Of a DNA stretch of 64,000 nucleotides, positions 14,687 through 36,145 are shown in pieces (the stretch's first letter is position 1; every line of letters starts with the position of its first letter). The stretch lies in NCBI GenBank assembly GCA_965197585.1, contig OZ240215.1:1632001-1696000 (forward strand). Reading direction: 5' to 3'. The notes under the pieces are model-generated. The model did not search any database. It was not told where the DNA came from and saw only the letters and a list, made by a program, of their open reading frames with translations. The DNA is from Dehalococcoidia bacterium. Its GTDB lineage: Bacteria > Chloroflexota > Dehalococcoidia > Plut-88900. The position numbers and the translations under genes were made by a program.

Positions 14687-14838
14687 GTGACCTTTGCATA
14701 ACCCGTATCGGTGGGGCCGGGGCCGCTCGTGCTGTCGTAGATCCGCCGAGGCGGGAGATTCTCGAAGTATGAGCGAGGGCGGAGGTTAGGCTATCTGGAT
14801 GGAACGATAAATGCGAAGTGCAGTTACGCATGCGTCCC
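14687..14838. mobile_element. MITE copy 3 with a 21-nt insert in its internal hairpin
   Basis: GTGACCTTTGCATAAC...GTTACGCATGCGTCCC; 152 bp = 131 + 21; flanks TTTAT/TAAAT; family-C right arm follows. Confidence 0.75.
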
Positions 14839-14957
14839 TAAATGCACCGAAGCGTGAGAGGGCTAGAGCCTGCACTGGGTTACTGCGAGTCCGCCTCCGG
14901 CGGGCCTACGGGGTGAAGGTGTTTCCCCTCCTTGATTCCCCGTAGGGGCGATTCGCG

Positions 14958-16633
14958 GAGTCTGTTTCATAAGTTATAGGCATATGGAGTAGGCTATGGT
15001 GGACAAGGTAGACAGCGTCATAAGGAGGTGACTGGGGATGCCACATCGACCGATGAACCGGGAACAGGTATGGATGTTGCCGCCGAGTCTCGACGAGATG
15101 CTGGGGGCCGGTCATTCTGCTCGATTTGTTGCTGAGTTCGTCGATGCCTTGGATGGAGAGGGCTGGGCAGCGATTGGGATTGATAGAGACGGGGAGGCGA
15201 TGGGAGCGCCGGCCTACCATCCCCGTGCGCTGTTGGGTGTGTGGCTGTACGGCTTCATGACCGGTGTGCGATCGAGCCGCAAGCTGGAGGCGGCCTGCTG
15301 CGACCAGATACCGTACCTTTGGCTGACGGGCTGCCAGCGCCCGGACCACGTGAGGTTGTGGCGGTTTTACAGCTCGCATCGGGATGGTATGAGGAAGCTG
15401 CTCAAGCGGACGGTGCAGACGGCGGTTAATATGGACCTGGTGGAGATGGCGGTGCAGGCGGTGGACGGGACGAAGATTAGAGCGAATGCGGCAAAGGACC
15501 GGACCTACGACGCCGCTGGGTTGCGCCGTCTGTTGGGCCGTTTGGAAGGTGCGATAGACGAGTTGGAAGCGCAGAACGAGGCTGGGGAGGAGTCGGCTAT
15601 CGGCCATCTGCCGGAGAGGTTGCAAGACCGCAAGGCATTGCGTGAGCGGGTGCGTGAGACGGTGCACAGACTTGCCGATCGGGATGGGCAAAAGCAGATC
15701 AACCTGACCGATCAGGACGCCCGGATGATGAAGACGCGACAGGGTTATGCGGTGGCCTACAACGCCCAGGCGATGGTCTCTACGGTAGCAGCGGCTGAGG
15801 GTAAAGCGCCCGGCATGCTGATCACGGCAGTTGATGTGGTGAACGACATATCCGACAGACGGCAACTGGGTGCGATGATGGAGAAGGCTGAGGAGACGTT
15901 GGGACAAAGGACGGAGATGACGTTGGCGGATGCGGGCTATCACTCCGGGAACAATCTACAGGAGTGCGCCCTAAGAGGCCAACGGGTGGTGATGCCTGAG
16001 TCGCAGGACCGGGCGCTGCAGAGCCCGTATCACAAAGACCGTTTCACCTACGACGAGGCGAGCGACAGCTACCGTTGCCCCGAGGGCCGGTTGCTGCGCT
16101 TCACTCGCACCAAGCGCACTCGCAACACAGCAATGCGGCTCTACCGGGCATCAGGGGCCGTGTGCCGGGCCTGCCCGGCCTTCGGGGTCTGTACGAAAGA
16201 CAAGCGTCATGGGCGTGCCCTGGAGATCGGTTCCCACGACGCTGCGTTGCGTCGACACCGGGCCTGGATGTCCACCGAAGAAGCCAAGGGTGCGTATAAA
16301 CAGAGAATGCAACTGGTAGAACCGGTCTTCGGCATCATCAAGGAGCAACAGCAAGCCCACAGGTTCCTGTTGCGTGGCTTAACCAACGTCTCGGCTGAAT
16401 GGAGCCTGCTCGCCACAGCCTTCAACTTGCGCACCCTGTGGAGGATACGGCGAGCCGCAGCTGCCTGGACAAAGCATTGGGTAGCCGAGGGCGCATACTC
16501 GGCCTATCGGGCGCTTCAGACGGCAATCGTGGGCACACTCAGCCCCCTGCTTCGATTAATGCGGCTCCGCCATCAGCCAGCCCGACCAAGCCAACTCCCC
16601 ACGTCAAGCACAACCTACATCTGAAACAGACTC
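14958..16633 (+). mobile_element. IS1182-family insertion sequence (1676 bp)
   Basis: 12-bp perfect IRs GAGTCTGTTTCA/TGAAACAGACTC; CGCG duplicated at 14954-14957 and 16634-16637. Confidence 0.9.
15038..16624 (+). CDS. IS1182-family DDE transposase
   Basis: GAPAYHP, SSRKLE, VDGTKIRANA, TDQDARMM, YNAQ, ADAGY, YRCPEG, VEPVFGIIK. Confidence 0.93.
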   Translation: MPHRPMNREQVWMLPPSLDEMLGAGHSARFVAEFVDALDGEGWAAIGIDRDGEAMGAPAYHPRALLGVWLYGFMTGVRSSRKLEAACCDQIPYLWLTGCQRPDHVRLWRFYSSHRDGMRKLLKRTVQTAVNMDLVEMAVQAVDGTKIRANAAKDRTYDAAGLRRLLGRLEGAIDELEAQNEAGEESAIGHLPERLQDRKALRERVRETVHRLADRDGQKQINLTDQDARMMKTRQGYAVAYNAQAMVSTVAAAEGKAPGMLITAVDVVNDISDRRQLGAMMEKAEETLGQRTEMTLADAGYHSGNNLQECALRGQRVVMPESQDRALQSPYHKDRFTYDEASDSYRCPEGRLLRFTRTKRTRNTAMRLYRASGAVCRACPAFGVCTKDKRHGRALEIGSHDAALRRHRAWMSTEEAKGAYKQRMQLVEPVFGIIKEQQQAHRFLLRGLTNVSAEWSLLATAFNLRTLWRIRRAAAAWTKHWVAEGAYSAYRALQTAIVGTLSPLLRLMRLRHQPARPSQLPTSSTTYI

Positions 16634-16662
16634 CGCGAACCGCCCTCCCCGTCCTGAAGTCA

Positions 16663-16770
16663 CTAATTTGATCGCCAGTCCATGTAACCGGCAACCCACC
16701 GCGCCGTTTGCTTATCCAGCTTTCGCAGTTGGGGTCTCGCAGTCACGGTTAATTCATTCGTCTAGGCCAA
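16663..16770 (-). pseudogene. RelE/StbE toxin remnant
   Basis: TTG GCC TAG ACG...: MA*TNELTVTARPQLRKLDKQTARWV; codon 3 is TAG where RelE usually has Trp; truncated at 36 codons; overlaps antitoxin end. Confidence 0.75.
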
Positions 16771-16981
16771 GATCTTCCCTGACCTCGGCGGCGGAATACA
16801 CCCGTACCTGACCCTTGCGTACGCGCTCTAGTACGTCCGCTGCTAGATAGTAATCTTCGAGATCATCGAGCCCGCGCTCAATGATCTCCCGTAGATAGAA
16901 AGCCTTAGTGCGTCCCGTTTGGGAAACCAGAAAGGCTAAGCGCTCCTCTATTTCAGTAGACAATCGAATTGACGTAGCCAC
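16754..16981 (-). CDS. RelB/CopG-like ribbon-helix-helix antitoxin
   Basis: TSIRLSTEIEERLAFLVSQTGRTKAFYLREII...LEDYYLA typical of RelB/StbD-type antitoxins. Confidence 0.85.
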   Translation of the reverse strand: MATSIRLSTEIEERLAFLVSQTGRTKAFYLREIIERGLDDLEDYYLAADVLERVRKGQVRVYSAAEVREDLGLDE

Positions 16982-17042
16982 AAACCGTCTCCCAGGGCGC
17001 GATAGGTGTATTCATTGAATCACACCCAAATATGTGCACCCC

Positions 17043-18059
17043 CTACTCCCCACCCACAATAATCTTCGACAAACTATCACCCTCCACGTTGGCGACCCAC
17101 ACGTTCTTCCCGTCGAAGGCCAAAGAAACGGGCCCCTTGCCCACATCGAACCTCCCCAGGCGTAGCCCCGTCAGCGACAACCTCATCACGTTGTTGCTGC
17201 CTGCGTTGGCCACCCACACCGTCTCTCCATCGAACAGGATGTCCACGGGCCCGTTCCCGACCTTGAACTCTCCCAACCGTGTCCCGTCCAGGGCCAACCT
17301 CGTCACCGAATCTGCCATATCATCTTCCAGAGGGCCGCTGTTCGCGATCCACATGCTGCCCCCATCGAAGGCCAGGGCTATCGGCCGAATCCCAACCTCG
17401 TACTCTGCCACTACCCGACCATCCCCATCCAGCTTCTGGACCGTGTTTCCTTCCGAGGTCGGCGACCCCAAGATTGTCACCCAAACATGCTCCCCATCAA
17501 ACGCCAGCCCCGAGGGCCCGTCCCCCACCCCGAACGTCCCCAATATCGCCCCCTCTTTAGATATCTTTGTTGCCGAGTCTTCAGTCGGGTTGACGACCCA
17601 TAAGTTCTCCCCATCAAACGTCATCGCAAATGGGGAATTGCCTGCTTCATATACCCCCAGTTCGGCCCCTTCCCCCGACAGCCTCACCACCCTGCTTCCC
17701 GGTTCAGTCGGGATCCCCAGCTCGGCTACCCACACATCCTCGCCGTCGAAAAGGATTGTTCCGGGAGTCCTCCCAATATCAAAGCTGCCCATCTCCGTCC
17801 CATCTAGCCCAAACCGCAGCACCTCCGTGTTCAATGTATCCAGCCTCCCGACGCTCGACACCCAAATACTCTCACCATCCGACTCCAGATGCGTCGGCGC
17901 AATCAAGCCCAGGTCGAACTTCTCAACCCTCGGTGGTATGTCCCCGGATTCGACTATCGGTATTGGCGTCGGCGTTGCATATGCCCCACCGCAGCCCAAC
18001 CCCACCAAGATAGTTATTAAAGCCAACGTTGCGAATGCCAAATATCTTCTAACTTTCAT
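17043..18059 (-). CDS. beta-propeller repeat lipoprotein (YncE/YVTN-like)
   Basis: Signal peptide with LGC lipobox; ~7 repeats of G.GP..LAFDG..VWV.N. Confidence 0.8.
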   Translation of the reverse strand: MKVRRYLAFATLALITILVGLGCGGAYATPTPIPIVESGDIPPRVEKFDLGLIAPTHLESDGESIWVSSVGRLDTLNTEVLRFGLDGTEMGSFDIGRTPGTILFDGEDVWVAELGIPTEPGSRVVRLSGEGAELGVYEAGNSPFAMTFDGENLWVVNPTEDSATKISKEGAILGTFGVGDGPSGLAFDGEHVWVTILGSPTSEGNTVQKLDGDGRVVAEYEVGIRPIALAFDGGSMWIANSGPLEDDMADSVTRLALDGTRLGEFKVGNGPVDILFDGETVWVANAGSNNVMRLSLTGLRLGRFDVGKGPVSLAFDGKNVWVANVEGDSLSKIIVGGE

Positions 18060-18205
18060 ATATGTTGAAGAGCCCCTTATCGGTTTGTAATTTTAGCCCC
18101 CATACTCTATACGCTCGCGCCTCGGGTTGAACAGGTGACCGGGAAGCCCTGGACCCGTGCAATGCTATACTTTCTCTACGAAAATCCGAATGCAGGCAAG
18201 GCGAA

Positions 18206-19432
18206 ATGGCACAAAATGAGTCCTACGTAATTGTTGGAGCGGGTATAGCCGGGGGCACGGCCGCCGAGACCCTCCGAAAACAGGGTTTCGACGGTGAAGT
18301 CCACCTTGTGGGTGCTGAGCCCCACCGGCCCTATGACAGACCACCCCTCTCCAAAGAGTTCCTGAGCGGCGCCAAAGAGGAATCCAAGCTCTTTTTCAAG
18401 ACAGAGGATTTCTACGCTGAACAGTCCATAGAACTACACCTCGGCGCCGAGGCCGCCTCTCTCGATCCATCCTCTCACACCGTGACCCTATCCAACGGCG
18501 AGTCTCTCCACTACGACAAGCTTCTCCTTGCCACGGGGTCGCAGGTCAAAAGGCTGCCCATCTCCGGTTCAAACCTCGACGGCGTCCACTATCTACGCAA
18601 CATTGAGGACTCCAAGGCCATCGCCCAGTCCATGAAAGACGCTGGTAGAGTGGTGGTAGTCGGGGCCGGGTTCATAGGCTCCGAGGTTGCCGCAGTCTGC
18701 AAGACCGCCGGCCTCGAAGTCACCGTCCTTGAAATCCAGCCTCAGCCCATGGCCCACATCCTCGGAGCCGATATGGGCGCAATCTACGCCAACCTCCACA
18801 CGAGCCGGGGCATCGACCTCCGGCTCGGCGAAGGCATCTCCGAAATCCGAGGCCAGTCCCGCGCCCAGCAGGTCATTACAGACAAAGGCAACGCCATCGA
18901 CTGCGATCTCGTAGTCATAGGCGTAGGCATCGCCCCCGACACCTCCCTCGCTGTGACTGCCGGCCTTGATGTCGAAGCGGGCATTCTCATCGACGAGCAC
19001 TGCCGCACCTCCGACCCCAACATATTCGCAGCTGGGGACGTGGCTAACTGGTTCCACCCCGGCCTCGGCCATCGGATCCGTGTCGAGCATTGGGACAATG
19101 CCCTTAATCAGGGCGCTGCAGCGGCAAAGTCCATGCTCGGCAACCCCGAGGCCTACGCCCCAGTCCTCTACTTCTGGTCCGACCAGTACGACCTCAATAT
19201 TCAGTACTTGGGCCACGCCACCGAGTGGGACGACATCGCCGTCCGAGGCGACCCTGCGGAGGAGAAGTTCTCAGCCTTCTACCTGAAAGACGGCTCGGTC
19301 CACGGAGCCCTCATCGTCAACAACTTCCGCGACATCAGGCCCACCCGCACCCTCATCGGCCAGAAAACCCCCGTCGACGCCAACTCCCTCTCCGACACAT
19401 CCACCAACCTCAAACAGCTAGCCCGCGGCTAG
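18206..19432 (+). CDS. ferredoxin-NAD(P) reductase (putidaredoxin reductase-like)
   Basis: PYDRPPLSK, LLATG, GAGFIG, AAGD, RVEHW, FWSDQY. Confidence 0.92.
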   Translation: MAQNESYVIVGAGIAGGTAAETLRKQGFDGEVHLVGAEPHRPYDRPPLSKEFLSGAKEESKLFFKTEDFYAEQSIELHLGAEAASLDPSSHTVTLSNGESLHYDKLLLATGSQVKRLPISGSNLDGVHYLRNIEDSKAIAQSMKDAGRVVVVGAGFIGSEVAAVCKTAGLEVTVLEIQPQPMAHILGADMGAIYANLHTSRGIDLRLGEGISEIRGQSRAQQVITDKGNAIDCDLVVIGVGIAPDTSLAVTAGLDVEAGILIDEHCRTSDPNIFAAGDVANWFHPGLGHRIRVEHWDNALNQGAAAAKSMLGNPEAYAPVLYFWSDQYDLNIQYLGHATEWDDIAVRGDPAEEKFSAFYLKDGSVHGALIVNNFRDIRPTRTLIGQKTPVDANSLSDTSTNLKQLARG

Positions 19433-19481
19433 AGTCGCCAAAGTGGGATAAGCGACGGATTCCACTCCCCTATCCTTCGAT

Positions 19482-19612
19482 GAGACCTTTGCACAACCTC
19501 TCGCGGTGGGGCCGGGGCCGCTCGTGCTGAGGCTCTCGAAGTATGAGCGGGGGGAGAGGTCATGTGATCTGGACAGTACAGCAGAGGCAATCTGTAGTTG
19601 TGCAAGAGTCTC
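19482..19612. mobile_element. MITE copy 4 (best conserved, 131 bp)
   Basis: TIRs GAGACCTTTGCACAAC / GTTGTGCAAGAGTCTC (14/16); perfect TCGAT duplication at 19477-19481 and 19613-19617; lies in the loop of a family-C hairpin. Confidence 0.85.
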
Positions 19613-19740
19613 TCGATAGGTCGAGGATGCGCCGAGGCGTTAGAGGGCTAGGGCCGTAGGCTCGCTGAGGAGAGTGAGGGTGAACTCAGAGGTCTAATGG
19701 CCTGGCAATCAATCAGACAGTGCTCACCTGGCAGCCGACC

Positions 19741-20661
19741 TCACCCAAAAATAACCGCCCCACCCAACCCCGCTGCATACATCATCCCCGACTGACCATG
19801 CAGCTTGGCCGTCTTCACCAACCCCATGCTCATCTCCCGCCGGTCTTTCCCCGTCAGCACCCTTCTCGCCGCCAGGAACGCCCAAAGTAGCGACGCCAGC
19901 CCTACCAGCCCCCATATCGAGACCACCCCCGTCACCGCGATTATCACCAGACCGCCGTAGGAAGCCAGCAGAAACCCGACATATATAACCCTTCCCGCCC
20001 CCGGCCCCAGCATCGTCACGAACGTCCTCTTGCCATTCTCCCTGTCCTCGTTCACATCCCTCAGGTTATTGCAGTGCAGAATGGCCGTTACGAGGAAGGC
20101 CACCGGCATCGACCCCCAGAAGGGCGCCCAAGCCAACTCTTGAGTTTGCACGTAGTATGCCGCCACCACCATCAAAGGCCCCATGAAGAAGAAAACCGTC
20201 GCCTCCCCGACTCCCGTGTCCCCCAACGGCTTCGGGCCCGCGCTATATAGCACCGCCACCAAAACGCTCCCCAATCCCACCGCCAGTATCGGCCAGCCGA
20301 CCTCCGTCACTATGTACAACCCCATCCCTATCCCAACCGCAAACGTTGCTATACACCCGATAAGTACCTCCCGCTCCGTAAGCAGCCCCCGAGCCAGCAC
20401 TCTGTGCGGTGCTGGAAACTTCGCTTGCCCGCCCTCCCGACGATGGTCCGCGTACTCATCCGTCAAATTGGTGCCGATCTGTATCGCCAACGACCCGACC
20501 AGCGCAAAAGCAAACAGCAGCCAGTCGAGGCTCACCCGCTCCGCTGCAATCGCGCTTCCCACCAGCACCGGCACCACCGCCGCACTCAGCGAAAACGGCC
20601 TCGATGCCCAGAACCACGCCCGACCGTAGTTCACAGTTCGATTCATCATTACGTTCACCAA
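19741..20661 (-). CDS. menA: 1,4-dihydroxy-2-naphthoate prenyltransferase
   Basis: RPFSL, NLTDEYAD, LYSAGPKP, NNLRDVNEDRENGKRT. Confidence 0.93.
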   Translation of the reverse strand: MVNVMMNRTVNYGRAWFWASRPFSLSAAVVPVLVGSAIAAERVSLDWLLFAFALVGSLAIQIGTNLTDEYADHRREGGQAKFPAPHRVLARGLLTEREVLIGCIATFAVGIGMGLYIVTEVGWPILAVGLGSVLVAVLYSAGPKPLGDTGVGEATVFFFMGPLMVVAAYYVQTQELAWAPFWGSMPVAFLVTAILHCNNLRDVNEDRENGKRTFVTMLGPGAGRVIYVGFLLASYGGLVIIAVTGVVSIWGLVGLASLLWAFLAARRVLTGKDRREMSMGLVKTAKLHGQSGMMYAAGLGGAVIFG

Positions 20662-20665
20662 CCAG

Positions 20666-21469
20666 CTACCAAGGCATATGCCTGTACGGCGAAAAGTCCG
20701 GCTGCCGCTTCTCTAAGAAGGCGTTGCTACCCTCCAGCGCCTCCTCCGAGCCGTAGAACAGGCTGTTCGCACCATGCGCCACCGCTTGCAGGCCATAGAC
20801 CCAGTCCGTCGCCGCGTTGAAGGAGGCCTTGAGCATCCTGAGTGCCGTGGGGCTCTTCTTCAGCATCTCGTTGCACCAGCGCACTGTCTCGGCCTCCAAC
20901 TCCTCCCGTGGCACGACCTTGTTGACCAACCCCATCGCCTCCGCCTCCCTGGCCGTGTACTGCTGGCACATGAACCAGAATTCCCGGGCCTTCTTCTCTC
21001 CGATAATATTCGCCAAGTACACCGCCCCGAACCCTCCGTCAAAGCTCCCGACCTTCGGCCCCGTCTGCCCGAATATCGCCGTCTCGCTCGCTATCGTCAG
21101 GTCGCACAGCACGTGGAGCACGTGCCCTCCGCCTATAGCGTAGCCGTTCACCATGGCTATCACCGGCTTCGGTATCGAGCGCATCGTCCTGTGTAGCTCC
21201 AGTACCTGCATCCGAGTCGACCCCGAGTCGTCCCGATAACCGCCGGGCCCCTTCAACCGCTGGTCTCCCCCCGAGCAGAACGCCCGGTCCCCGACCCCCG
21301 TCAGAACTGCCACTCCCACCTTCTCATCGAACCACGCATCCTTGAACGCGTCCACCATCTCGTCTATGGTGCGGGGCCGGAAAGCGTTCAGCACCTCCGG
21401 ACGGTTAATGGTGATCTTGGCTATGCCGTCGCCTTTTTCGTATATGATGTCTGTATAGGTTGAAGTCAT
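20666..21469 (-). CDS. menB: 1,4-dihydroxy-2-naphthoyl-CoA synthase
   Basis: [39 protein letters not shown]. Confidence 0.97.
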
Positions 21470-21537
21470 GTTACCTCCCGGAAGTCAGTTAAATCGAGTG
21501 TGGTAGCTATTTTTGACTCCCCTGCTCACCTGATCTT

Positions 21538-25218: not shown

Positions 25219-25392
25219 GAGGCCTTTGCGTAACTCGGCACTTAACACTCAGAGGGACTATATGCCCTTGCTCGGGGGTGGGGCCGGAATCCGCTCACCC
25301 TGTCGAAGATCCGCCTAGGCGGGAGCAGGGTCGAAAGGTCAAGCGGATTCCGGGCGGGGTTCCCATTTGTTGACAAGTTGCGCACAGGTCTC
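25219..25392. mobile_element. MITE copy 5 (174 bp) inserted at the menD start codon
   Basis: TIRs GAGGCCTTTGCGTAAC / GTTGCGCACAGGTCTC; perfect TTCAT duplication at 25214-25218 and 25393-25397; internal hairpin A with 21-nt insert. Confidence 0.85.
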
Positions 25393-27372: not shown

Positions 27373-27392
27373 TGTAGACGACTCCCAACACT

Positions 27393-27447: not shown

Positions 27448-27458
27448 CCGATATCGGA

Positions 27459-28130
27459 CTACTGCACCGTCCCAGCGACCAGATACTCGGCCAACGCCCG
27501 CTCTATGATCCGTTTCACGTTGTACGCCACGTAGCCCCTCTCCACCGACGCCTCGATTGCAGTCTGGGCCTCGGCGGACATATCAAGCATCGAGTAGGCA
27601 ATCGCCTGTCCCACATAAGCCTTCCCCAGATCCGCGTCCAGCCCGATGGCCTTGTCAAAGTCCTCCAATGCTAATCCCGGGAGCCCCATTTCGATGTACA
27701 TGCTGCCCCGGTTGGCGAATGCCTGCGCGTTCCCCGCGTCACGCTCCACAACTTCCGTGTAGTCCGACACCGCGTCCTGCGGTCTTCGAAGCTGGGAATA
27801 TGCAAACGCCCTGTTGTAATAGGCAGCGACCCTCTCAGGGTCTAGTGCTAATGCCTCGTCGTAATCGTCGATGGCGTCATTCCATCGCTTTGTTGCCAGC
27901 CAAGCGAGACCCCTGTCGAAATAGGCGTCTGAGAATTCTGGATCGGCGCGTATGGCTTTGGTGAACGCCGCAATGGAGGCCCCTAGTTGGCCCTTGCTGA
28001 AGAGCTCCTCGCCCTCCCGATAATGCGCCAGTGCAGCCTCAGACTCGGTATCCGGGCCTCGAGCGCCCTCCCCACCCCCACACGCGATTAACAGCAGGAG
28101 GCAGATCCCGGCCAGAACGAGTTTCAGCAT
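27459..28130 (-). CDS. TPR-repeat lipoprotein
   Basis: LIAC lipobox; repeats AY.NRG.A...A..DY..A..LDP. Confidence 0.85.
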   Translation of the reverse strand: MLKLVLAGICLLLLIACGGGEGARGPDTESEAALAHYREGEELFSKGQLGASIAAFTKAIRADPEFSDAYFDRGLAWLATKRWNDAIDDYDEALALDPERVAAYYNRAFAYSQLRRPQDAVSDYTEVVERDAGNAQAFANRGSMYIEMGLPGLALEDFDKAIGLDADLGKAYVGQAIAYSMLDMSAEAQTAIEASVERGYVAYNVKRIIERALAEYLVAGTVQ

Positions 28131-28147
28131 CCCACTGATCGGGACCG

Positions 28148-29353
28148 CTAAACTACGCTTTCTTGCCGCAGTTTCTCTATGCGCTCTTCGGAGTAGCCCA
28201 GCACGCCTGCCAGGACCTCATCTGTGTCCTGCCCCAATAGGGGTGCCGCTCTGTATTCAGTCGGGGAGTCCGACAGATTGATCGGGTTCCCGATCATCTT
28301 CCACTCCCCTCTCTGCGGGTGCTCCATGGTGGCTATCATCCCCCGCTCCTCGATGTGCGGGTCTTCGAACAGGTCCTTGGCGTTCAGAACCGCCCCAGCC
28401 ACGACCCCCTGGCTCGCGCACGTGTTCATAACCTCATACTTGGTGTGCTGTAGCGTCCAGTCCTCGACCATCTTGTCCACCTCTTCCTTCCGATTGAACC
28501 GGAGTTCCGAGGAGGTGTAGCGCTCGTCGCCGACGAGGTCTTCCCTGCCGATTATCCTGAGCAGGCTGTTCCACGAATCTGAGATGCTCTCGGTGGCGTA
28601 GACATAGCAGTAGTCATCGAGACCGCCGGGCTTGCACCGGTACATCCGGGAGGGCGCGGTGTTCCAACCGTCGTCTCCCTTTCTCATTATCATCTCGGGA
28701 TTGTGGTAGTACCACATCATCGCAACCCTGCCAAAGTTGAACACCGACTCCTGCATGGAAACCTCAACTACCTGCCCCTTCCCAGTCCGCTCCCTCTGAA
28801 GCAATGCCGCCACAACTCCCAGAGCCGCGTGGTAGCCCGTCCCAATATCCCCGATGGACGTTCCCATCGGTACAGGCGGCCCATCTTTGTATCCATTTGT
28901 GGCATACGACCCGCCCGTGCACTGCGCGATCATGTCGAAGCACTTGTAGCGACTGTAGGGCCCGTATGTCCCGAACCCCTTGACCCGCCCCAGCACTATC
29001 TTCGGATTCACCTCCGACAGCACATCGTATCCCAGTCCTAATCGCTCGAGGGTCCCGGGTCCCTGGTTCTCCGCCACTACGTCTGCATTTCTCACCAGTT
29101 CCAGGAACACAGCCTTCCCCTCCTCCGACTTCAAGTTCAGAGTGATGCTCCGCTTGTTGGAGTTCAGGATCAGAAAATAAGGACTGTCGATCCCGGCAAT
29201 GTCCTGCGGCGCTACCCGACCCGGATCCCCTCTCCCTGGGGCCTCCACCTTGATCACATCCGCCCCCAGCCAGGCCAGAGCCTGAGTAAAGGAAGTTCCG
29301 GCCTCCCACTGTGTCAAGTCGACCACCCTGTAGCCTTCCATTGCCTTTTCCAT
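28148..29353 (-). CDS. class III CoA-transferase (Frc/CaiB-BaiF)
   Basis: VVDLTQWEAG, LGADVIKVE, NSNKRSITLNLK, GDIGTG, APLLGQ; start moved to ATG 29353. Confidence 0.92.
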   Translation of the reverse strand: MEKAMEGYRVVDLTQWEAGTSFTQALAWLGADVIKVEAPGRGDPGRVAPQDIAGIDSPYFLILNSNKRSITLNLKSEEGKAVFLELVRNADVVAENQGPGTLERLGLGYDVLSEVNPKIVLGRVKGFGTYGPYSRYKCFDMIAQCTGGSYATNGYKDGPPVPMGTSIGDIGTGYHAALGVVAALLQRERTGKGQVVEVSMQESVFNFGRVAMMWYYHNPEMIMRKGDDGWNTAPSRMYRCKPGGLDDYCYVYATESISDSWNSLLRIIGREDLVGDERYTSSELRFNRKEEVDKMVEDWTLQHTKYEVMNTCASQGVVAGAVLNAKDLFEDPHIEERGMIATMEHPQRGEWKMIGNPINLSDSPTEYRAAPLLGQDTDEVLAGVLGYSEERIEKLRQESVV

Positions 29354-29529
29354 CTTTGTCCCCCTTTGCTTGGTTACCGGTGGTTGCAGAGCGTATATAA
29401 TCCCAACTGCGCCCCGGGTGAAACATCCGCCTGGCTGAAAGTCCGCCGTGGGCGGAGCGGGGCCGTTACATTCTACACCACCAAAAGACTGCGCCAAGGC
29501 CCTGCGCCCTGGCCCCTAGGGAGGAGAAC

Positions 29530-29964
29530 ATGGCAACAGACTTGAGCTTCGTTTGTATCGCCGTCCACGACCTTCAGGAAGCCTCCGACAGATTCTGCAA
29601 CCTCTTCGGCTTGGAGGTTATGCAGCTGCCCAACGACAACACTCAACTCGGCTACAGCAGCACCTACCTCGGCAACGGCTCCAAAGCCCTCATCGAGCTC
29701 ATCGAGCCCCTCGGCGAAGGCAGTGCCGTCGGCAAGTTCCTTGAAACCCGAGGCGAAGGTGTCTACCTAATCACCTTCGAGGTAGATGACATCCGCGACT
29801 CTGTAAAAAAGGTCCGCTCCCACGGCGGCCGTGTCACCGGCATCCCCGATGACGAAGAGCCCGGCCCCAACGCCGACTACCTATGGGTCCATCCCAAAGG
29901 CACCCACGGAGTCTTCGTGGAACTCCTGCAAAAAGGCTTCGGCCCCCTCCCCGGCGGAAGCTAA
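29530..29964 (+). CDS. VOC-family protein, methylmalonyl-CoA epimerase-like
   Basis: IELIEP, KFLETRGEG, HPKGTHGVFVEL; GGAGG SD; the usual first and third metal-binding His are not evident. Confidence 0.75.
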   Translation: MATDLSFVCIAVHDLQEASDRFCNLFGLEVMQLPNDNTQLGYSSTYLGNGSKALIELIEPLGEGSAVGKFLETRGEGVYLITFEVDDIRDSVKKVRSHGGRVTGIPDDEEPGPNADYLWVHPKGTHGVFVELLQKGFGPLPGGS

Positions 29965-30009
29965 CCCCACACTATCCCTATTGATCCTTTGCCCGCTCCC
30001 CCTCCCCCC

Positions 30010-30035
30010 GTAAGGGCGATTCGTGAATCGCCCTT
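30010..30035 (+). repeat. GTAG-type REP palindrome between convergent genes
   Basis: GTAAGGGCGATTCGTGAATCGCCCTT; same family as the IS1182 target. Confidence 0.75.
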
Positions 30036-30057
30036 CCCCTCGCCATCACACAGTTGT

Positions 30058-30879
30058 CTACCCAACACCCACCGTAGGCTGACAAACCGGACAAAAATAA
30101 GTCCCCCTCCCCCCGACCACCATCCTCTGTATCTCCCCGGAACACCCGGGACACGACGCCCCGCTCTTCCGAGGAACCAGGAATATCTTGTCTCCCAAAT
30201 CCTCCGTAGGGGGCGCATCTGCCGGGAGATTCTCCTGCAATATCTCAATGGCCCGCGTCAGTATCACTACTATCGAATCGTGAATCGCACCTATCGACTC
30301 CGCACCTAGCTTCTTCGCCGGTGTCTGAGGATGCACGCCTGACCTGAACAGAATGTCGTCCGCGTAGATGTTCCCAATCCCGGCAATCCGCTTCTGGTCC
30401 ATCAGCAGCGACTTTATCACCGTGCTCCGTCCCTCAACGATTCCCTCCAGCACTCCCGGAGTGAATGAGGGCTCCAGTGGCTCGGGCCCGAGCCCCCCGA
30501 CCACCGACTCCGCATCATCAACTAACCACACCGCCCCAAACTTGCGCGGGTCCACGAACCGTAGGTCGTACCCGTCTTCAAAGTGAAATACCGTCTGCGT
30601 ATACCGGTGCATCTCCTCCGAGGACTCTACAACCCGCAGCGAGCCCGTCATCCTCAAGTGCACTATCAGGGTGCGCGTATCCCTCAGTTGGAATAGAAAA
30701 TACTTCGCCCTCCGGCCCACGTCATCAATGGTCGCGCCTAGAATGTCCTCCCGGAACTCCCCAGCCGAAGGGGTCTTGACCGCCTTCGGCCAGTTCAGCG
30801 TCACCCCACCGACGGTACGGCCCCTTACTTCAGGCGCTATCACCCGACGCATCGCCTCAACGTCCGGTAATTCCGGCAT
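30058..30879 (-). CDS. mutM: formamidopyrimidine-DNA glycosylase
   Basis: MPELPDVE, RRAKY, HLRMTG, DPRKFG, GIGNIYAD, C-terminal Zn finger. Confidence 0.96.
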   Translation of the reverse strand: MPELPDVEAMRRVIAPEVRGRTVGGVTLNWPKAVKTPSAGEFREDILGATIDDVGRRAKYFLFQLRDTRTLIVHLRMTGSLRVVESSEEMHRYTQTVFHFEDGYDLRFVDPRKFGAVWLVDDAESVVGGLGPEPLEPSFTPGVLEGIVEGRSTVIKSLLMDQKRIAGIGNIYADDILFRSGVHPQTPAKKLGAESIGAIHDSIVVILTRAIEILQENLPADAPPTEDLGDKIFLVPRKSGASCPGCSGEIQRMVVGGRGTYFCPVCQPTVGVG

Positions 30880-30882
30880 CGG

Positions 30883-33621
30883 TTACGCCATGTCTCCCCA
30901 GTTGGGGCCCATCTTTACATCCACGTTCAGGGGTACGCTCAACTCCAGCGCCGAAGACATGACCTCTCTCGCCAGCCCAGCCATCTCCTCCACTTCATCC
31001 GACGGCGTCTCGAAGATTAGCTCGTCGTGGACCTGAAGAAGCATCCTGCTCCTCATATGGGCCTCGTCCATCCGGTTCTGCATCCCGATCATCGCCAGCT
31101 TCGTTATCTCCGCCGACGTGCCCTGGATGGGCATGTTGATAGCCATCCTCTCGGCAGCCATCCTAACGTTGTGGTTCCTCGAGTTTAACTCCGGGAAGTG
31201 CCGCCGCCGACCCAGCACCGTCTGCACGTACCCCTGCGCCCGAGCCTTGTGCTTCGTCACCTCCATGTACTCCTTGACTCCCGGGTACCGCTCAAAATAC
31301 TGGTTTATGAAGGTCTGGGCCTCTTCGTTGGAAAGCTCCGTCCAGGACGCCAGCCCGAACCCGCTGATCCCATAGATGATCCCGAAGTTTATCGTCTTAG
31401 CAATCCGGCGCATTTCCGATGTGACCTCGTCCATCGGGACACCATATACAAATGAAGCAGTTGCAGCGTGAATGTCCGCCCCGTCATGGAATGCCTTTAT
31501 CAGGCTCGGGTCCTCCGATATATGCGCCAGCACCCGTAGGTCTATCTGCGAATAGTCCGCCGCCAGCAATACCCAGTCCGGGTGGTCCTGCGCAATGAAC
31601 GCATGCCGCACCTGGCCGCCCAGTTCCGTGCGAATCGGTATGTTCTGCAGGTTCGGATCGTTGCTCGACACCCGACCCGTCACAGTCCCCGTCTGGTTGA
31701 ACGTCGTGTGCACCCGACCCGTGTTCGGGTTCACCAGCGACGGCAAAGCATCCAGATATGTCGATTTGAGCTTAGATATCTGCCGGAACTCGAGCATCTT
31801 TTCCACCATCGGATGCGCGCCCCTCAGTCCTTCCAACACCCGTGCATCCGTCGAGAACCCGCTCTTGGTCCGCTTGGCGCTCGGCAGCGACAGCTCTTTG
31901 AACAGTACGTCACCAAGCTGCTTCGGCGAATTAATGTTGAACCGGTGCCCGACGTCGTCATAGATCCCCCCCTCCAGCACCGCCATCCGCTCCCCCAACT
32001 CCAGGGACAACCCCTCCAGTAGTTTCCCGTCCAGTGCAATCCCCGCACGTTGCATCCGCACAATGATAGGAACGAGGGGCAGCTCCACGTCGTCCATGAT
32101 TTCCCATCGCCCCTCCTCCCGCAGCTCCCTCTCGATCATCATGGATAGGCGCAGGGTAATATCCGCGTCCGCCGCCGCGTACGGGCTCGCCGACTCCACG
32201 CTCACCTTGTCCATCGTGATCTGCTTTGATCCTGTGCCGATCAGCTCCGTGATCGGCATCATCTCAATCCCCAGCCTGTCGAAGGAAAGCCCCTTCAGTC
32301 CCAATGACTTCTCCCCGATCAGGAAGGCTGCAATCATGCTGTCGTTGGCCAGACCCCGCACCTCTATCCCGTAATTAGCCAGGATCATCATGTCGTAGTT
32401 GGCATTGTGGGCTGTCTTGGGCAGCGACTCGTCCTCGAACAGAGGCCGTAGCCTTTCTATTACCAGCTCTCTAGGCAATTGCAGCCCCGAGTTGTGCCCC
32501 ACCGGAATGTAGTACGACACTCCGGGCCTCGCCGATATCGAAATCCCCACCAAGCCCGCCATCATCGCGTTCAGGCTGGTCGTCTCAGTATCGAAAGCGA
32601 AGTATCCCGCCTCCCGAACCTCCGCAATCATCGCCTCAAGGGCGCCTTCGTCCCGTACCGTGTGGTACTCGACAGCCCCACCCCCCGAGACCTTCTCCTC
32701 GGCCTCTTCACCACTCTCCCTATCCCCACCCGGCAGCCGAGGCAGCAAACTGGAAAATTCCAGCTCCCTGAACAGTCCCACCACCGCCTCCCGGTTAAAC
32801 GCCGCCCTTGCACAAGCTGGAAGGTCAAGGTCCAAAGGCACCTGCACTATAATCCTGGCCAGGTCCACCGACAGCCTCGCCTGGGATTCGTGCTCTTTCA
32901 GTAAACCTTGAATCCGCGGCGGCTTCACCTCTTCTACATGCTTGTATATATCCTCTATCCCCCCGAACTGCTGCACCAGCTTCGCCGCCGTCTTCGCCCC
33001 GATCCCCGGCACCCCAGGTATGTTGTCCGACGTGTCCCCCATCAGCCCCTTTAGGTCTGGGATCAGGACAGGAGGCACACCGTACCTCTCCACAACCTTC
33101 TTCTCGTCGTAGAACACGGTCTCCTTGAACATCCCTCTGGGTATTAGAGCCTTCACGTACGGATTGATAAGCTGGACGATGTCCGTGTCCCCCGTGAGGA
33201 TTACCGTATCAATCCCCTGCTCCGACGCCTGCTTCGACAGAGTCCCGAGAATGTCGTCCCCCTCATAGCCATCCATCTCGTAGGCGGGAATCCCAAAGGC
33301 CGCAATGAGTTCCCGGGTTCGCCTGAACTGCGCTCTCAGTTCATCCGGCGTCGACGCCCGCTGCGCCTTGTATTCCTCATATTGCAGGTGTCTGAACGTG
33401 GGCGTCGGCCTGTCGAATACGATCGCGCAGTGAGTCGGGTCTATCTCGTCGAGAGCCTTCAGCAATGCGCTGGTGAACCCATACACCGCCCCGATAGGTT
33501 CCCCTGTCTTATTCACGGTGAGAGGCGGCAACGCATGAAACGCCCGATGAATCAGCGCATGCCCATCCATCAACAGAAAAAGCGGTTTCCGCTCCAGCAT
33601 AGAAGCCTGTTGGTTCGCCAT
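30883..33621 (-). CDS. polA: DNA polymerase I
   Basis: 5'-3' exonuclease (HRAFHA, GDTSDNIPGVPGIG), DTET 3'-5' exonuclease, NLQNIP, DYSQ, QVHDEL. Confidence 0.98.
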   Translation of the reverse strand: MANQQASMLERKPLFLLMDGHALIHRAFHALPPLTVNKTGEPIGAVYGFTSALLKALDEIDPTHCAIVFDRPTPTFRHLQYEEYKAQRASTPDELRAQFRRTRELIAAFGIPAYEMDGYEGDDILGTLSKQASEQGIDTVILTGDTDIVQLINPYVKALIPRGMFKETVFYDEKKVVERYGVPPVLIPDLKGLMGDTSDNIPGVPGIGAKTAAKLVQQFGGIEDIYKHVEEVKPPRIQGLLKEHESQARLSVDLARIIVQVPLDLDLPACARAAFNREAVVGLFRELEFSSLLPRLPGGDRESGEEAEEKVSGGGAVEYHTVRDEGALEAMIAEVREAGYFAFDTETTSLNAMMAGLVGISISARPGVSYYIPVGHNSGLQLPRELVIERLRPLFEDESLPKTAHNANYDMMILANYGIEVRGLANDSMIAAFLIGEKSLGLKGLSFDRLGIEMMPITELIGTGSKQITMDKVSVESASPYAAADADITLRLSMMIERELREEGRWEIMDDVELPLVPIIVRMQRAGIALDGKLLEGLSLELGERMAVLEGGIYDDVGHRFNINSPKQLGDVLFKELSLPSAKRTKSGFSTDARVLEGLRGAHPMVEKMLEFRQISKLKSTYLDALPSLVNPNTGRVHTTFNQTGTVTGRVSSNDPNLQNIPIRTELGGQVRHAFIAQDHPDWVLLAADYSQIDLRVLAHISEDPSLIKAFHDGADIHAATASFVYGVPMDEVTSEMRRIAKTINFGIIYGISGFGLASWTELSNEEAQTFINQYFERYPGVKEYMEVTKHKARAQGYVQTVLGRRRHFPELNSRNHNVRMAAERMAINMPIQGTSAEITKLAMIGMQNRMDEAHMRSRMLLQVHDELIFETPSDEVEEMAGLAREVMSSALELSVPLNVDVKMGPNWGDMA

Positions 33622-33633
33622 GGTCTTTTTCCT

Positions 33634-33679
33634 CCCCTCTCCCTTGAGGGGAGAGGGCTAGGGTGAGGGTGAGGGTGAA
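33634..33679 (+). repeat. family-C hairpin repeat
   Basis: CCCCTCTCCCTTGAGGGGAGAGGGCTAGGGTGAGGGTGAGGGTGAA (one extra GAGGGT unit). Confidence 0.88.
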
Positions 33680-33772
33680 TCCTGTCCCCCAAATCACCCC
33701 GATTATAGCACCCCACCCCCCACACCCTTCCTGCTAATATACGCCCATCATCCGCTTCAATGGGAGGCATTC

Positions 33773-34708
33773 ATGGCCCTGCGTATAGGCATGCACACCG
33801 GCGTCCAGGACGTTAGCTACCCCGACCTCCGCAAGCTCTGGCAAGTCGCCGACTCCAATGGTTTTTACTGGGTCTCCGTCTGGGATCACTTCTACGAAAA
33901 TCCCACCCAAGACGGCAAAAGCCCTTGCTTCGAGGCTACGACCACAATGGCTGCCATTGCAGCGGAAACCGAAAATGTACGCATCGGCTGCCTCGTCATG
34001 GCCATCGGCTACCGAAATCCTGCTCTCCTCGCCAAGGCAACCGTCACCATCGACCATATCAGCAACGGACGCGTTGAAATGGGGATCGGTGGCGGCTGGT
34101 ACGAGATGGAGTTCCTCGCCTACGGCTACCCGTACCCCCCAATAAAGACCCGACTCGACCAACTCGAAGAGGGTGCCCAGATCATTCGCTCCATGCTCCA
34201 CAACGAGTCCACGACCTTCCAAGGCGAGCACTACTCCGTCGATAACGCCTACCTCTTCCCCCGCCCCATCCAGGCCTCTCCCCGACTCTGGATCGGCGGC
34301 CTCGGTGAAAAGCGCACCTTGCGCATTACCGCTAAGTACGCCGATGGCTGGAACGCCGCCTACGTCCCCCCCGAGATGTTCGCCGCCAAGTCCCAGATCC
34401 TCGACGGCTGGTGCGATAAAGAAGGCCGGGACCCGGCCTCAATCACCCGCAGCGTCAACTTAGGCTTCTACATGGGAACCGACGAAGCTGACGCCCGAAA
34501 GAAACACGACGATATTGAAAGCGCCTGGGGTGGCGACCCCACCTACAAGCCTGGCGGCATGCTCTTCGGCACCTCGGCTCAGGTCATGGACCGCATCGGG
34601 GAGTACGTCGACATCGGCGTCACAGACCTCAACATCGCCTTCCGCGCCCCCTTCGACTTCGACGCTGTCCAGTCCTTCATCGAAGACGTAATGCCAGCCT
34701 TCAAATAG
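33773..34708 (+). CDS. LLM-class (probably F420-dependent) oxidoreductase
   Basis: WDHF, RNPALLAK, DHISNGR, GIGGGW, WIGG, ADGWN. Confidence 0.9.
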   Translation: MALRIGMHTGVQDVSYPDLRKLWQVADSNGFYWVSVWDHFYENPTQDGKSPCFEATTTMAAIAAETENVRIGCLVMAIGYRNPALLAKATVTIDHISNGRVEMGIGGGWYEMEFLAYGYPYPPIKTRLDQLEEGAQIIRSMLHNESTTFQGEHYSVDNAYLFPRPIQASPRLWIGGLGEKRTLRITAKYADGWNAAYVPPEMFAAKSQILDGWCDKEGRDPASITRSVNLGFYMGTDEADARKKHDDIESAWGGDPTYKPGGMLFGTSAQVMDRIGEYVDIGVTDLNIAFRAPFDFDAVQSFIEDVMPAFK

Positions 34709-34716
34709 AATCCACT

Positions 34717-34852
34717 GTCATTCCGAGGCCCCGCGAGGAATCTGGGGCGGGGTGGGACTCCGCTTAGTCCCTGGGTGGTGGGCAATCCTACCCTCTCTCC
34801 CTCGACGGGAGAGGGCTGGGGCCGTAGGCTCGCTGAGGAGAGTGAGGGTGAA
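34717..34852 (+). repeat. composite repeat: family B (34717-34742) + linker + family C with 21-nt insert (34791-34852)
   Basis: Same B-TGGGGCGGGG-C layout as 13385; insert CCGTAGGCTCGCTGAGGAGAG at 34822-34842. Confidence 0.88.
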
Positions 34853-34855
34853 TCC

Positions 34856-35335
34856 CTACCTCAGCCGCTTCATCAACGCCTTGCCCACGTGCGCCGGCAC
34901 AAAAGAGTCCGGGTCTCCACCAAGCTTCACTACCTCTTTCAACAGGGAAGAGCTTAGGAACTGGTGCTCCAGGCTGCTCATAAACGTCACCAGCTCAATG
35001 TCCGGGGCCAGCTTCTTGTTCATCAACGCCATCTCGAACTCACGCTCGAAGTCCGAGTTCATCCGAAGCCCTCGTATCATCACCTTGGCATTGATCTCCC
35101 GGGCGTAGTCCACGGTCAGCCCCGTATACTCAACCGCCCTGATGTTCGGGAAGCCTTCCAGCGAGTCATTGATCAGGGCTATACGTTCCTCGGTATTGAA
35201 TAGCAGCCTCTTGTTGTCTGGTGTGGAGTAAACCGCTATTACAACCTCGTCGAACACTAAGGAGGCCCTCTTTGCGATGTCCAGGTGACCGTTGGTTACG
35301 GGATCGAAGCTCCCGGGGTATAGGGCGGTGGTCAA
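34856..35335 (-). CDS. coaD: phosphopantetheine adenylyltransferase
   Basis: YPGSFDPVTNGHLDI, IRGLR, SSSLLKE. Confidence 0.97.
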   Translation of the reverse strand: MTTALYPGSFDPVTNGHLDIAKRASLVFDEVVIAVYSTPDNKRLLFNTEERIALINDSLEGFPNIRAVEYTGLTVDYAREINAKVMIRGLRMNSDFEREFEMALMNKKLAPDIELVTFMSSLEHQFLSSSLLKEVVKLGGDPDSFVPAHVGKALMKRLR

Positions 35336-35886
35336 AGACTTCCCTCCACTCGAAAGATGCTCAACATTGTATCACCGTACGTCTTCTCTTTTTCCAGCAC
35401 GAAATTCCCGTACCGTTCCTTGATAGGCCGACGCTTGGAGTGCTCAACAATTAGCAGTCCTTCCGGACTGCATAAGCCTTTCTCACCTATCAGCCCCAGG
35501 ACCCGATCAACCGGCTCATCAGCATACGGAGGGTCCATGAATATCAAGTCGTACTCCCCCGAGAGTGTTCCCACCGCTTTCTCCGCATCCAGCACATGCA
35601 CCCGACCCCGGTCACTTAACCCCGTGGCCTTAAGGTTATCTCCTATAGTTCGAGCCAACCCCCGGTCCCGCTCCACGAAGTCCACCCACCCCGCCCCCCG
35701 GCTCAACGCCTCGATCCCGATCGCCCCTGTGCCTGCATACAGGTCCAGCACCCGCCTCAACTCCACACCCGCCGCATCCAGCATAGAGAACAGCGCCCCT
35801 CGAACCCGTTCAGAGCTGGGCCGCAGCCCCGCATTCGCCGGAGCCTTCAACCTCCGCCCCTTTGCCTCACCAGCAATAACCCGCAT
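35332..35886 (-). CDS. rsmD: 16S rRNA m2G966 methyltransferase
   Basis: MRVIAGEAKGRRL, LDLYAGTG, DPPY, YGDT; TAGAAT 6 nt upstream of ATG. Confidence 0.95.
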   Translation of the reverse strand: MRVIAGEAKGRRLKAPANAGLRPSSERVRGALFSMLDAAGVELRRVLDLYAGTGAIGIEALSRGAGWVDFVERDRGLARTIGDNLKATGLSDRGRVHVLDAEKAVGTLSGEYDLIFMDPPYADEPVDRVLGLIGEKGLCSPEGLLIVEHSKRRPIKERYGNFVLEKEKTYGDTMLSIFRVEGSL

Positions 35887-35991
35887 TCCAGGATTCTAAG
35901 TCCCCCCCACCCAACCCGCAACGCTCTACCTCTTCCCCGTCACCACGAGCCTCCTCCCCAACCCCCTCACCCCGACGCTCCTCCGCCCATT

Positions 35992-36017
35992 GTCATCCCG
36001 AGGCTCCGCGAGGGATC
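35992..36017 (+). repeat. family-B repeat with compensatory stem change
   Basis: GTCATCCCGAGGCTCCGCGAGGGATC (ATCCC/GGGAT in place of ATTCC/GGAAT). Confidence 0.85.
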
Positions 36018-36090
36018 TAGGATTTTCCCACTCACCTCCCACTACATCCCAGCCCCTCCGTCCTCCTCCACCCAATCTCCATGTTTGATT

Positions 36091-36145
36091 CCGCTCATCC
36101 TGAGCGTGCTGAAAGTCCGCCATGGCGGATCGAAGGGTCGAGCGG
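36091..36145 (+). repeat. free hairpin-A repeat with ~21-nt insert
   Basis: CCGCTCATCCTGAGCGTG-[CTGAAAGTCCGCCATGGCGGA]-TCGAAGGGTCGAGCGG. Confidence 0.7.

Follow-up and report, generated by a model that had tools for sequence, protein, structure and literature searches.

Repeats of only 21 or 22 nucleotides (nt), each set precisely into another repeat, are the subject of this report. They came to light in a stretch of 64,000 nt from a Dehalococcoidia bacterium (assembly GCA_965197585.1, contig OZ240215.1, positions 1,632,001 to 1,696,000 of the forward strand; this whole stretch is hereafter the window). We have followed them through the genome that holds the window (G000; a single contig of 3,429,519 bp with 59% G+C) and through eight other species of the same genus (G001-G008), of which G005 is the sister species. 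A gene for DNA polymerase I within the window has its nearest relatives in metagenome-assembled genomes labelled Dehalococcoidia (phylum Chloroflexota). The units are precisely gained and lost at orthologous sites, in both directions and without target duplication, which supports the mobile micro-element proposed in a first-pass annotation of the window. On balance, we favour the view that they form a genus-wide family of very small non-coding mobile DNA, moved by single-strand cut-and-join with an enzyme that Pfam does not recognise as a Y1 transposase, a reverse transcriptase or TnpB.

A catalogue of the whole of G000, built with regular expressions for four motif classes and therefore approximate, holds 260 units, all of them 21 or 22 nt long (109, 60, 47 and 44 in classes I to IV, respectively). 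A preliminary degenerate unit pattern had given 183 matches in the same genome, in many and different surroundings. The typical unit is a tail of 7-8 nt (TCGNAGAT, CTGNAAGT, GGAACAT or CCGTAGGC) followed by a G+C mini-hairpin of 5-6 bp with a 2- or 3-nt loop, and the classes are defined as follows.

Class I: TCGNAGAT followed by [C/G]CGCC, a loop of 2-3 nt and GGCG[G/T]G
Class II: CTGNAAGT followed by a hairpin as in class I
Class III: GGAACAT followed by CCGCC NNN GGAGGA
Class IV: CCGTAGGCTCGCTGAGGAGAG and variants

The first-pass annotation had given every insert as 21 nt and most of them as bearing a mini-hairpin. The 21-nt forms are indeed there, but 22-nt forms, with a 3-nt loop, are nearly as common; the mini-hairpin holds for the classes with a G+C hairpin but not for class IV, in which no convincing hairpin was seen and whose kinship with the other classes may be no more than loose. 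Chance can be set aside, since a 20-letter degenerate pattern allowing one mismatch has three matches in the window against 0.01 expected from 100 shuffles, and since the class I pattern has 51 matches in the genome against none for its reversed control.

The constancy of length holds across the genome when no unit motif is presupposed. A scan of G000 took pairs of 11-mers that directly follow one another in at least three places but stand 1-120 nt apart in others, and it returned 36 rows at 21 nt, 26 at 22 nt, a single row at 20 nt and another at 23 nt. With two exceptions, the 21/22-nt rows are recognisable units, a few rows being one place in shifted register, and the genuine rows at 42-44 nt are two units, one nested in the other. 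The other peaks are 1-nt indels (76 rows) and one tandem array near 131,100, so that the only dispersed peak is that at 21/22 nt; the array (G000 ~131,100-131,190) is built of an 18-nt C/A-rich unit (ACCCCAACGCCCACGCCA-like) and explains all of the 18/36/54-nt peaks. Of 87 matches to the type of one host repeat, hairpin A, 62 have an inner spacing of 5-7 nt and 20 one of 27-29 nt, the remaining five being other or double; the longer spacing is +21, +22 or +23 relative to empty copies.

Gain and loss were read from a comparison with the sister species, for which 2.8 of the 3.15 Mb of G005 were used and 497 best segments, with 2.53 Mb aligned to G000, were obtained. Orthologous indels of 21 nt number 16 with the extra sequence in G000 and 14 with it in G005, and those of 22 nt 18 and 11 (34 and 25 for both lengths together), compared with 0 and 2 at 23 nt and 5 and 6 at 19 nt. 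Most of the 21-22-nt indels are clean units, of all four classes and in both directions. Approached from the catalogue, 130 of the 260 G000 units are alignable to G005, with 95 shared, 26 precisely absent there and nine partial; the 226 units of G005 give 127 that are alignable, of which 94 are shared, 26 are absent in G000 and seven are partial. Among the 52 polymorphic units, 22 have a terminal direct repeat of 0 nt, 25 one of 1 nt and four one of 2 nt, and a single unit reaches the maximum of 3 nt; with 47 of the 52 at 0-1 nt, insertion without target duplication, as claimed at the outset, is upheld. Lineage-specific units have an identical copy elsewhere in 15/26 and 16/26 cases, compared with 31/95 and 33/94 for the shared ones, an excess that recent copying from few sources predicts and that gene conversion predicts too.

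The window itself holds at least ten units, including one at 29435-29456 that had not been listed before, and the six inserts quoted in the first-pass annotation are all found there, letter for letter and at their coordinates. No Rfam family reaches its gathering score within the window. The units, their hosts and some empty copies for comparison are given here in window coordinates.

14723..14775, plus strand: filled host hairpin A, CCGCTCGTGCTG ... TCGAAGTATGAGCG
14735..14755, plus strand: class I unit TCGTAGATCCGCCGAGGCGGG, an 8-nt tail and a CCGCC/GGCGG mini-hairpin, at CTG^AG in the loop of hairpin A
14883..14911, no strand assigned: atypical unit-like hairpin, a class II match on the plus strand (14883-14904) overlapping a class I variant on the minus strand (14890-14911)
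19518..19549, plus strand: empty hairpin A, comparison copy
19610..19683, plus strand: host module C with two units, CTCTCGATAGG^AGAGGGCTAGGG^TGAGGGTGA
19621..19641, plus strand: class I unit TCGAGGATGCGCCGAGGCGTT, in module C
19654..19674, plus strand: class IV unit CCGTAGGCTCGCTGAGGAGAG at GGG^TGAGGGTGA, shared by G000, G002 and G005
25291..25346, plus strand: filled host hairpin A', CCGCTCACCCTG ... TCGAAAGGTCAAGCGG, between two minus-strand genes
25303..25323, plus strand: class I unit TCGAAGATCCGCCTAGGCGGG, identical in G005
29435..29456, plus strand: class II unit CTGAAAGTCCGCCGTGGGCGGA, nested within a GAAACATCCGCC...GCGG hairpin, in its loop
34791..34851, plus strand: host module C with one unit
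34822..34842, plus strand: class IV unit, identical to 19654-19674
36091..36145, plus strand: filled host hairpin A', CCGCTCATCCTGAGCGTG ^ TCGAAGGGTCGAGCGG
36109..36129, plus strand: class II unit CTGAAAGTCCGCCATGGCGGA at G^TCGAAG
42279..42299, plus strand: class III unit GGAACATCCGCCTTTGGCGGA, after a degenerate ...CAACCGAATAT tail
13426..13465, plus strand: empty module C, comparison copy (second empty copy at 33633-33672)
374..442, plus strand: empty hairpin A with flanks (more empty copies at 5096-5164 and near 61843)

Taking 21 nt out of 14723-14775 restores the CTG^AG junction of the empty hairpin A at 19518-19549, just as had been described. Two related 22-mers had also been mentioned; one stands at 14883-14904, whereas the other, at 42279-42299, is 21 nt long and of the GGAACAT class. 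Three of the window units can be followed into other species. That at 19621-19641 occurs in G000 and G002 and is missing, exactly, from the orthologous site in G005; that at 25303-25323 is in G000 and G005 and precisely absent from G002-like and G003-like orthologues, which keep the host; and that at 36109-36129 is in G000 and a G002-like orthologue and absent from a G003-like orthologue, again with the host kept. These patterns do not fit one tree, and they therefore call for repeated gain, precise loss or recombination.

Eight further sites were polarised with small pieces of G002 and G003 against G000 and G005. Four of them look like clean lineage-specific gains whose flanks are identical in the empty relatives, namely a class II unit at G000 site 1935741 and G005-only units at G000 sites 2520114, 2341727 and 1917883. 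One polarised unit is in G005 and G003 and missing in G000 and G002, and two adjacent units common to G005 and G002 are missing in G000 (1932507/1932520), beside a short diverged patch. At one orthologous locus the species form a nested series of 0, 2 and 3 units.

The sites that the units occupy are many and of unrelated kinds. The 260 units fall into 44 flank contexts, 20 recurrent and 24 singletons, some of which lie within other units. The usual targets are other hairpin repeats, in the loop or 3' arm, or another unit, where its tail meets its stem, and relative to a host hairpin a unit always stands in one orientation only. Nests reach three deep, with classes I, II and III at one locus. 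The base at position -1 is G in 99/109 class I, 54/60 class II and 42/44 class IV units, and T in 35/47 of class III. Class I alone has at least eight recurrent host contexts, including these.

CTG^AG in hairpins A and A'
GGG^AGAGGG in module C
GG^AATCC in two related hairpins
GAG^ACC in another module
GATG^CGCC inside other units
Free-standing, at the 3' end of a ~700-nt repeated element

The last of these hosts deserves a description of its own. The ~700-nt element (for example G000 1917660-1918420, with other copies including 114300-115500 and 1286300-1287500) begins with a promoter-like TTGACT...TATATT, followed by AAGGAGG and a conserved 190-nt 5' module, and it ends in the free-standing class I unit. 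There are ~55 copies of the 5' module and ~17 of the full element in G000, lying upstream of different genes and with the same strand bias as the units. It has no convincing open reading frame (ORF), its RNA fold has a z-score of -2.55, and three copies searched against Rfam at E<=0.1 gave nothing relevant.

At the module C site GGGCTAGG^GTGAGGGTGA (for example G000 122650, 1869912 and 3170178), which is the class IV junction, unrelated inserts of 24-25 nt such as AGAGCCTGCCCCGAGTCCCCCCGAG were seen, so this site accepts more than one kind of short insert. In-frame insertions of seven codons within genes had also been suggested as something to look for, and no convincing case came to light: 90 units lie within crude ORF calls, and as the inspected cases are in recognisable host hairpins near ORF ends, we take the calls at those places to be spurious. 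We do not claim that targets are recognised by guide-like pairing; the hairpin A loop has a TCTCGA with which the tail TCG.AGA could pair, and by eye no such complement was seen in the other hosts.

Since a repeat within a repeat might simply be a subfamily of its host, we considered how far the two are independent. A tree was made of 82 copies of hairpin A, 20 of them filled, after the unit had been taken out. The flanks vary, so that this is a weak tree of limited power, and on it the filled state changes 18 times, compared with 16-19 times in the first ten label shuffles. Identity between two filled copies is 0.546 and between a filled and an empty copy 0.545, and the nearest neighbour of a filled copy is also filled in six cases, with 4.7 expected. 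The filled copies do not form a clade. In the genus as a whole, the class I pattern is found in all nine genomes, whilst the other 292 Dehalococcoidia genomes gave two stray single matches and the reversed control gave none. Numbers per genome run from 2 to 89 for class I and from 1 to 61 for class II, with totals for the two classes of three in G008 (two and one), five in G006 (four and one) and up to 140 in G001. A host hairpin motif, however, occurs 21-89 times in each of the nine, with 89 in G006 and 76 in G008. Few units amid abundant hosts in these two species mean that the units are distinct from the hosts that carry them, and that their expansion was confined to certain lineages. Taken together, the filled and empty orthologues in both directions, the scatter of the filled copies and the species that are poor in units and rich in hosts support the view that the units are not fixed host subfamilies.

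The orientation of the units follows the GC skew of the DNA around them. With skew measured over 10-kb flanks and the repeat itself left out, orientation agrees with its local sign in 235 of the 260 units, and in 59 of 64 where the skew is a patchwork; p-values for this overstate the case, as the units are not independent observations. Genes, by contrast, are divided about equally between the strands everywhere in G000 (crude gene calls), and between tandem genes of at least 250 aa the orientation of units is 33/15 for '++' and 32/17 for '--' pairs (Fisher p 0.83). On the written strand the stems have 206 G.T/T.G pairs and eight A.C pairs, a count that is biased by the catalogue patterns, and the second pair of the stem is C-G in 89 units, G.T in 74 and other in six. 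The filled hairpin A at 14723-14775 likewise folds better, as DNA, on the top strand (-13.8 kcal/mol) than on the bottom (-9.4 kcal/mol). Given the skew-linked orientation, the G.T pairs on one strand and the absence of any link to gene direction, we infer a process that is DNA-strand-specific and linked to replication rather than one that goes through RNA.

The skew of G000 is itself strong and block-structured, at about -0.1 to -0.19 over 1.06-2.65 Mb and positive at 0.7-1.06 and 2.65-2.9 Mb, with a fine patchwork elsewhere. The cumulative curve bottoms near 2.65 Mb and peaks near 1.06 Mb, and dnaA, at 3.03 Mb, does not coincide with the minimum; origin and terminus are placed from skew and dnaA only. 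An excess of G over C generally marks the leading strand.

A mechanism of the following kind would accommodate these findings. The units may act as one particular DNA strand during chromosome replication, and would be cut and joined as single strands in a strand-specific manner, much like the 'peel and paste' of IS200/IS605 elements, which act on the lagging-strand template. After a first insertion, ectopic recombination between paralogous host repeats would help to spread or erase the units; that it does so is probable, because many gains share a position in paralogous hosts whose flanks match perfectly over long stretches, and because one patch resembles a conversion tract. As to what performs the cutting and joining, undescribed machinery is a tentative suggestion on our part, either a new family of single-strand DNA transposases, with no sequence relationship to HUH Y1, reverse transcriptase or TnpB, or host replication and repair enzymes acting at the fork on a hairpin oligonucleotide of 21-22 nt.

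Several observations weigh against reading the units as mobile DNA of this kind. No enzyme was found. The Pfam family Y1_Tnp (PF01797, which takes in the TnpA of IS200/IS605 and RAYT) has no match at E<=0.01 in any of the nine genus genomes, whereas it matched 6 of 14 control genomes, and neither RVT_1 nor the TnpB zinc-ribbon family has a match in G000. IS110 recombinases were considered as mobilisers and rejected, with nine copies in G000, none in G001, which has the most units, and a copy number that does not follow unit load. The strand bias is shared by the empty hosts, one host hairpin standing 63 to 2 in regions of negative skew and 1 to 21 in those of positive skew, and so it may belong to the hosts or reflect survival rather than unit insertion; it could, for instance, arise if hairpins were tolerated on one template only. 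If G over C does mark the leading strand here, the better-folding strand is the lagging-strand sequence and not its template. Taken by themselves, the mini-hairpins fold weakly (-1.9 to -4.6 kcal/mol), and most do no better than shuffled sequence. The expressions behind the catalogue bias the wobble counts and may mix unrelated sequences into class IV. Polarisation covers only eight sites, with a species tree that does not settle the branching of the four closest genomes. Several gains occupy one and the same position in paralogous hosts whose flanks are homologous over a long stretch, a setting in which gene conversion looks alike, and the diverged patch at G000 1932507/1932520 looks like a conversion tract.

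The remainder of the search may be given briefly. Y2_Tnp has no match, a negative without weight since its control was silent as well. The serine recombinases are four large phage-type genes (552-610 aa), and no small IS607-like one was found. Neighbouring units of opposite orientation form only three pairs within 3.5 kb, and the genes between facing units, judged by eye, are a membrane protein, an SRP GTPase, a methyltransferase/restriction pair and a YbeY-like protein; no transposase-like ORF flanked by inverted units was found among these translations, again judged by eye, and the RAYT/TnpA gene flanked by the motif that the first-pass annotation had in mind was thus not recovered. Viral contigs have seven single exact matches to a 21-letter pattern, a number estimated to be at chance level. 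The likeness to RAYT-type HUH substrates proposed at that stage survives in part: a single-strand, replication-linked process fits, but Pfam finds no Y1 enzyme in any of the nine genomes.

The mobile reading has rivals, and gene conversion is the likeliest of them. In its full form this explanation does without transposition and takes the units for modules of a mosaic, like bacterial interspersed mosaic elements (BIMEs), shuffled by ectopic gene conversion, template switching or unequal recombination. The hosts are numerous and have 10-20 nt of perfect flank around the site, paralogous hosts have many of the lineage-specific gains in a common position, one locus has its diverged patch beside two missing units, the 7-nt and 15-nt indels of the free-standing element resemble the outcome of slippage from one hairpin to its neighbour, and no transposase was found. 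Set against this, class I contexts have no homology beyond G^A, and 24 contexts across the units are singletons. One unit variant stands in five hosts (1509537, 2466297, 2543411, 2787501 and 3062144) that differ right after the junction, and given these differing loop letters a conversion tract would have to end within 2-3 nt. The boundaries are constant to the base, host numbers in G006 and G008 are normal while units are nearly wanting, and no hairpin-A paralogue in G000 is filled in the manner of the G000-specific class II unit at 1935741. Targets that share only G^A, differing loop letters, constant boundaries and the excess of identical copies lead us to conclude that gene conversion is not the whole story, and we regard a mosaic without transposition as unlikely. 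A more static version, in which each combination of host and insert descends from one old indel that was copied only with its host, the units never having been mobile, can point to the correlation of unit subfamily with host (the CCGCC type in 26/33 for hairpin A, and the GCGCC type in 24/25 for the AATCC hairpins and 22/24 for module C). We give it hardly any weight, since filled and empty orthologous pairs occur in both directions, filled hairpin-A copies are scattered in number of changes and in nearest neighbours as described above, and units are nested in one another; the polarised sites, the host tree and the orthologous comparison all contradict the single ancestral indel per class that had been named as a ground for abandoning the original claim.

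Transposition by known enzymes fares no better. The units could be ordinary repetitive extragenic palindromic (REP) sequences moved by a Y1 HUH transposase of the RAYT/IS200 type that is too divergent to be matched, was recently lost or is supplied by a plasmid or phage. Their size lies within the 21-65 bp given for REPs in the part of PMC3184786 drawn on here, and they are extragenic G+C-rich hairpins with a conserved 5' tail, which reads GTAG in the TCGTAG variants, with strand-linked orientation and no target duplication. We nonetheless find this improbable, as PF01797 is absent from nine genomes and detected in 6 of the 14 controls, the three opposite-orientation pairs enclose ordinary-looking genes (by eye), the units are singletons in uniform orientation rather than inverted doublets, and the viral contigs offer only chance-level matches. 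An RNA route, in which transcribed hairpins are copied back by a reverse transcriptase, would turn the G.T pairs into G.U and could draw on the promoter-like start of the unit-carrying ~700-nt element. RVT_1 has no match in G000, however, orientation is unrelated to the direction of flanking genes, and the window unit at 25303-25323 is antisense to both of its Pfam-supported neighbours, as is its host hairpin A' at 25291-25346, both flanking genes being on the minus strand; we consider this route very improbable.

Among known systems, the small dispersed repeats (SDRs) of the Nostocaceae come closest to the family described here. SDRs reportedly measure ~20-27 nt and nest in other repeats (Elhai et al. 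2008, Genome Res 18:1484, is said to describe both). The likeness is to SDR4-6, and by description only: in the excerpts of the literature on which we rely, these are short, dispersed, high-copy stem-loops that are thought to be mobile and insert at short sites or in other repeats, without a known enzyme. Those excerpts give SDRs as ~20 bp and possibly mobile (PMC2884548), list them among repeats of unknown origin (PMC3116915), and state that SDR5 inserts at HIP1 and that no SDR-like repeat was found outside Nostocaceae among the cyanobacteria examined (PMC5861425). The present family shares the size, with its 260 units of 21-22 nt, the filled and empty sites and the insertion into other repeats. 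It differs in its phylum, Chloroflexota, and in its targets, which are hairpin loops and arms after G rather than the HIP1 octamer that the excerpted source reports for SDR5. For the present family it is shown besides that orientation follows the replication strand, and that Y1 (nine genomes), reverse transcriptase and TnpB (G000) were searched for and found absent. By analogy, the units may be called SDR-like, whilst descent from SDRs is unlikely given the different phylum.

Other comparisons are looser. With REPs, BIMEs and REPINs (REP doublets forming hairpins), as portrayed in the portions of PMC3184786, PMC3116915 and bioRxiv 10.1101/279083 used here, the units share a short, extragenic G+C hairpin with a conserved 5' tail, copy numbers in the hundreds, clustering into mosaics and a mechanism presumed to work on single-stranded DNA; at 21-22 nt they are of REP size, and they are imperfect palindromes in many copies. 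They differ in that the RAYT gene is absent from nine genomes and in being inserted precisely in repeats and in each other, and the inverted doublets of REPINs are not seen, orientation being uniform over megabase blocks apart from the three opposite-strand pairs. The resemblance to IS200/IS605 lies in insertion without duplication, in one orientation and beside a short motif, in hairpin recognition, in seamless loss and in the link to the replication strand. In contrast to those elements, the units have one hairpin instead of two subterminal ones, are 21-22 nt instead of hundreds of nt long, come with neither TnpA nor TnpB and have a C-rich folding strand. MITEs (miniature inverted-repeat transposable elements) are likewise non-coding and multi-copy and have filled and empty orthologous sites, by which the mobility of Nezha and Correia was shown according to the part of PMC3184786 consulted. 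MITEs, however, are 100-400 bp long with terminal inverted repeats and target duplications, none of which the units possess. A shallow literature search, which is no proof of absence from print, found no comparable element in Chloroflexota or elsewhere beyond the SDR citations.

The window has other repeated sequences that we record for completeness. A 1.7-kb insertion sequence at 14945-16646 encodes a DDE_Tnp_1_6/DUF772 transposase (ORF 15038-16624); it has a 100% identical copy at G000 2205627-2207327 and at least ten copies at 99% in G003, and it is absent from its site in G002 and G005, which indicates recent activity or exchange between species. A transposase region of the rve type (integrase core) is present in two copies, 96% identical, at 40288-40587 and 47030-47329, and ORF 40354-41337 has rve_3/rve domains. 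Tandem duplicated gene-sized segments at 5193-6806 and 11523-13283, spaced 860 nt at 86-89% and 1197 nt at 79-83% identity, are probably paralogous gene pairs. Parts of the stretch occur in 23 public sequencing runs; the contigs of four of them, compared with window positions 16700-36500, break at the repeats and yielded no usable filled/empty evidence in either direction.

There is a practical consequence, in that the units break short-read assemblies, and 21/22-nt indels can be mistaken for errors. More broadly, mobile DNA of ~21 nt appears to have been reported in bacteria once before, in the Nostocaceae, with its mechanism open since 2008, and the family described here is a second system, from an unrelated phylum and in nine mostly closed genomes of one genus. 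Unit load differs ~40-fold among these genomes while targets remain constant, and dozens of dated gains and losses can be read, so that the search for the enzyme becomes tractable by comparison. The tie between repeat orientation and replication strand, free of a gene-strand bias, offers a clean natural case for the study of hairpin DNA at the fork. If undescribed machinery does move them, then these units would be among the smallest self-defined mobile DNA in bacteria, and would represent a second, independent origin of the unexplained SDR phenomenon of cyanobacteria.

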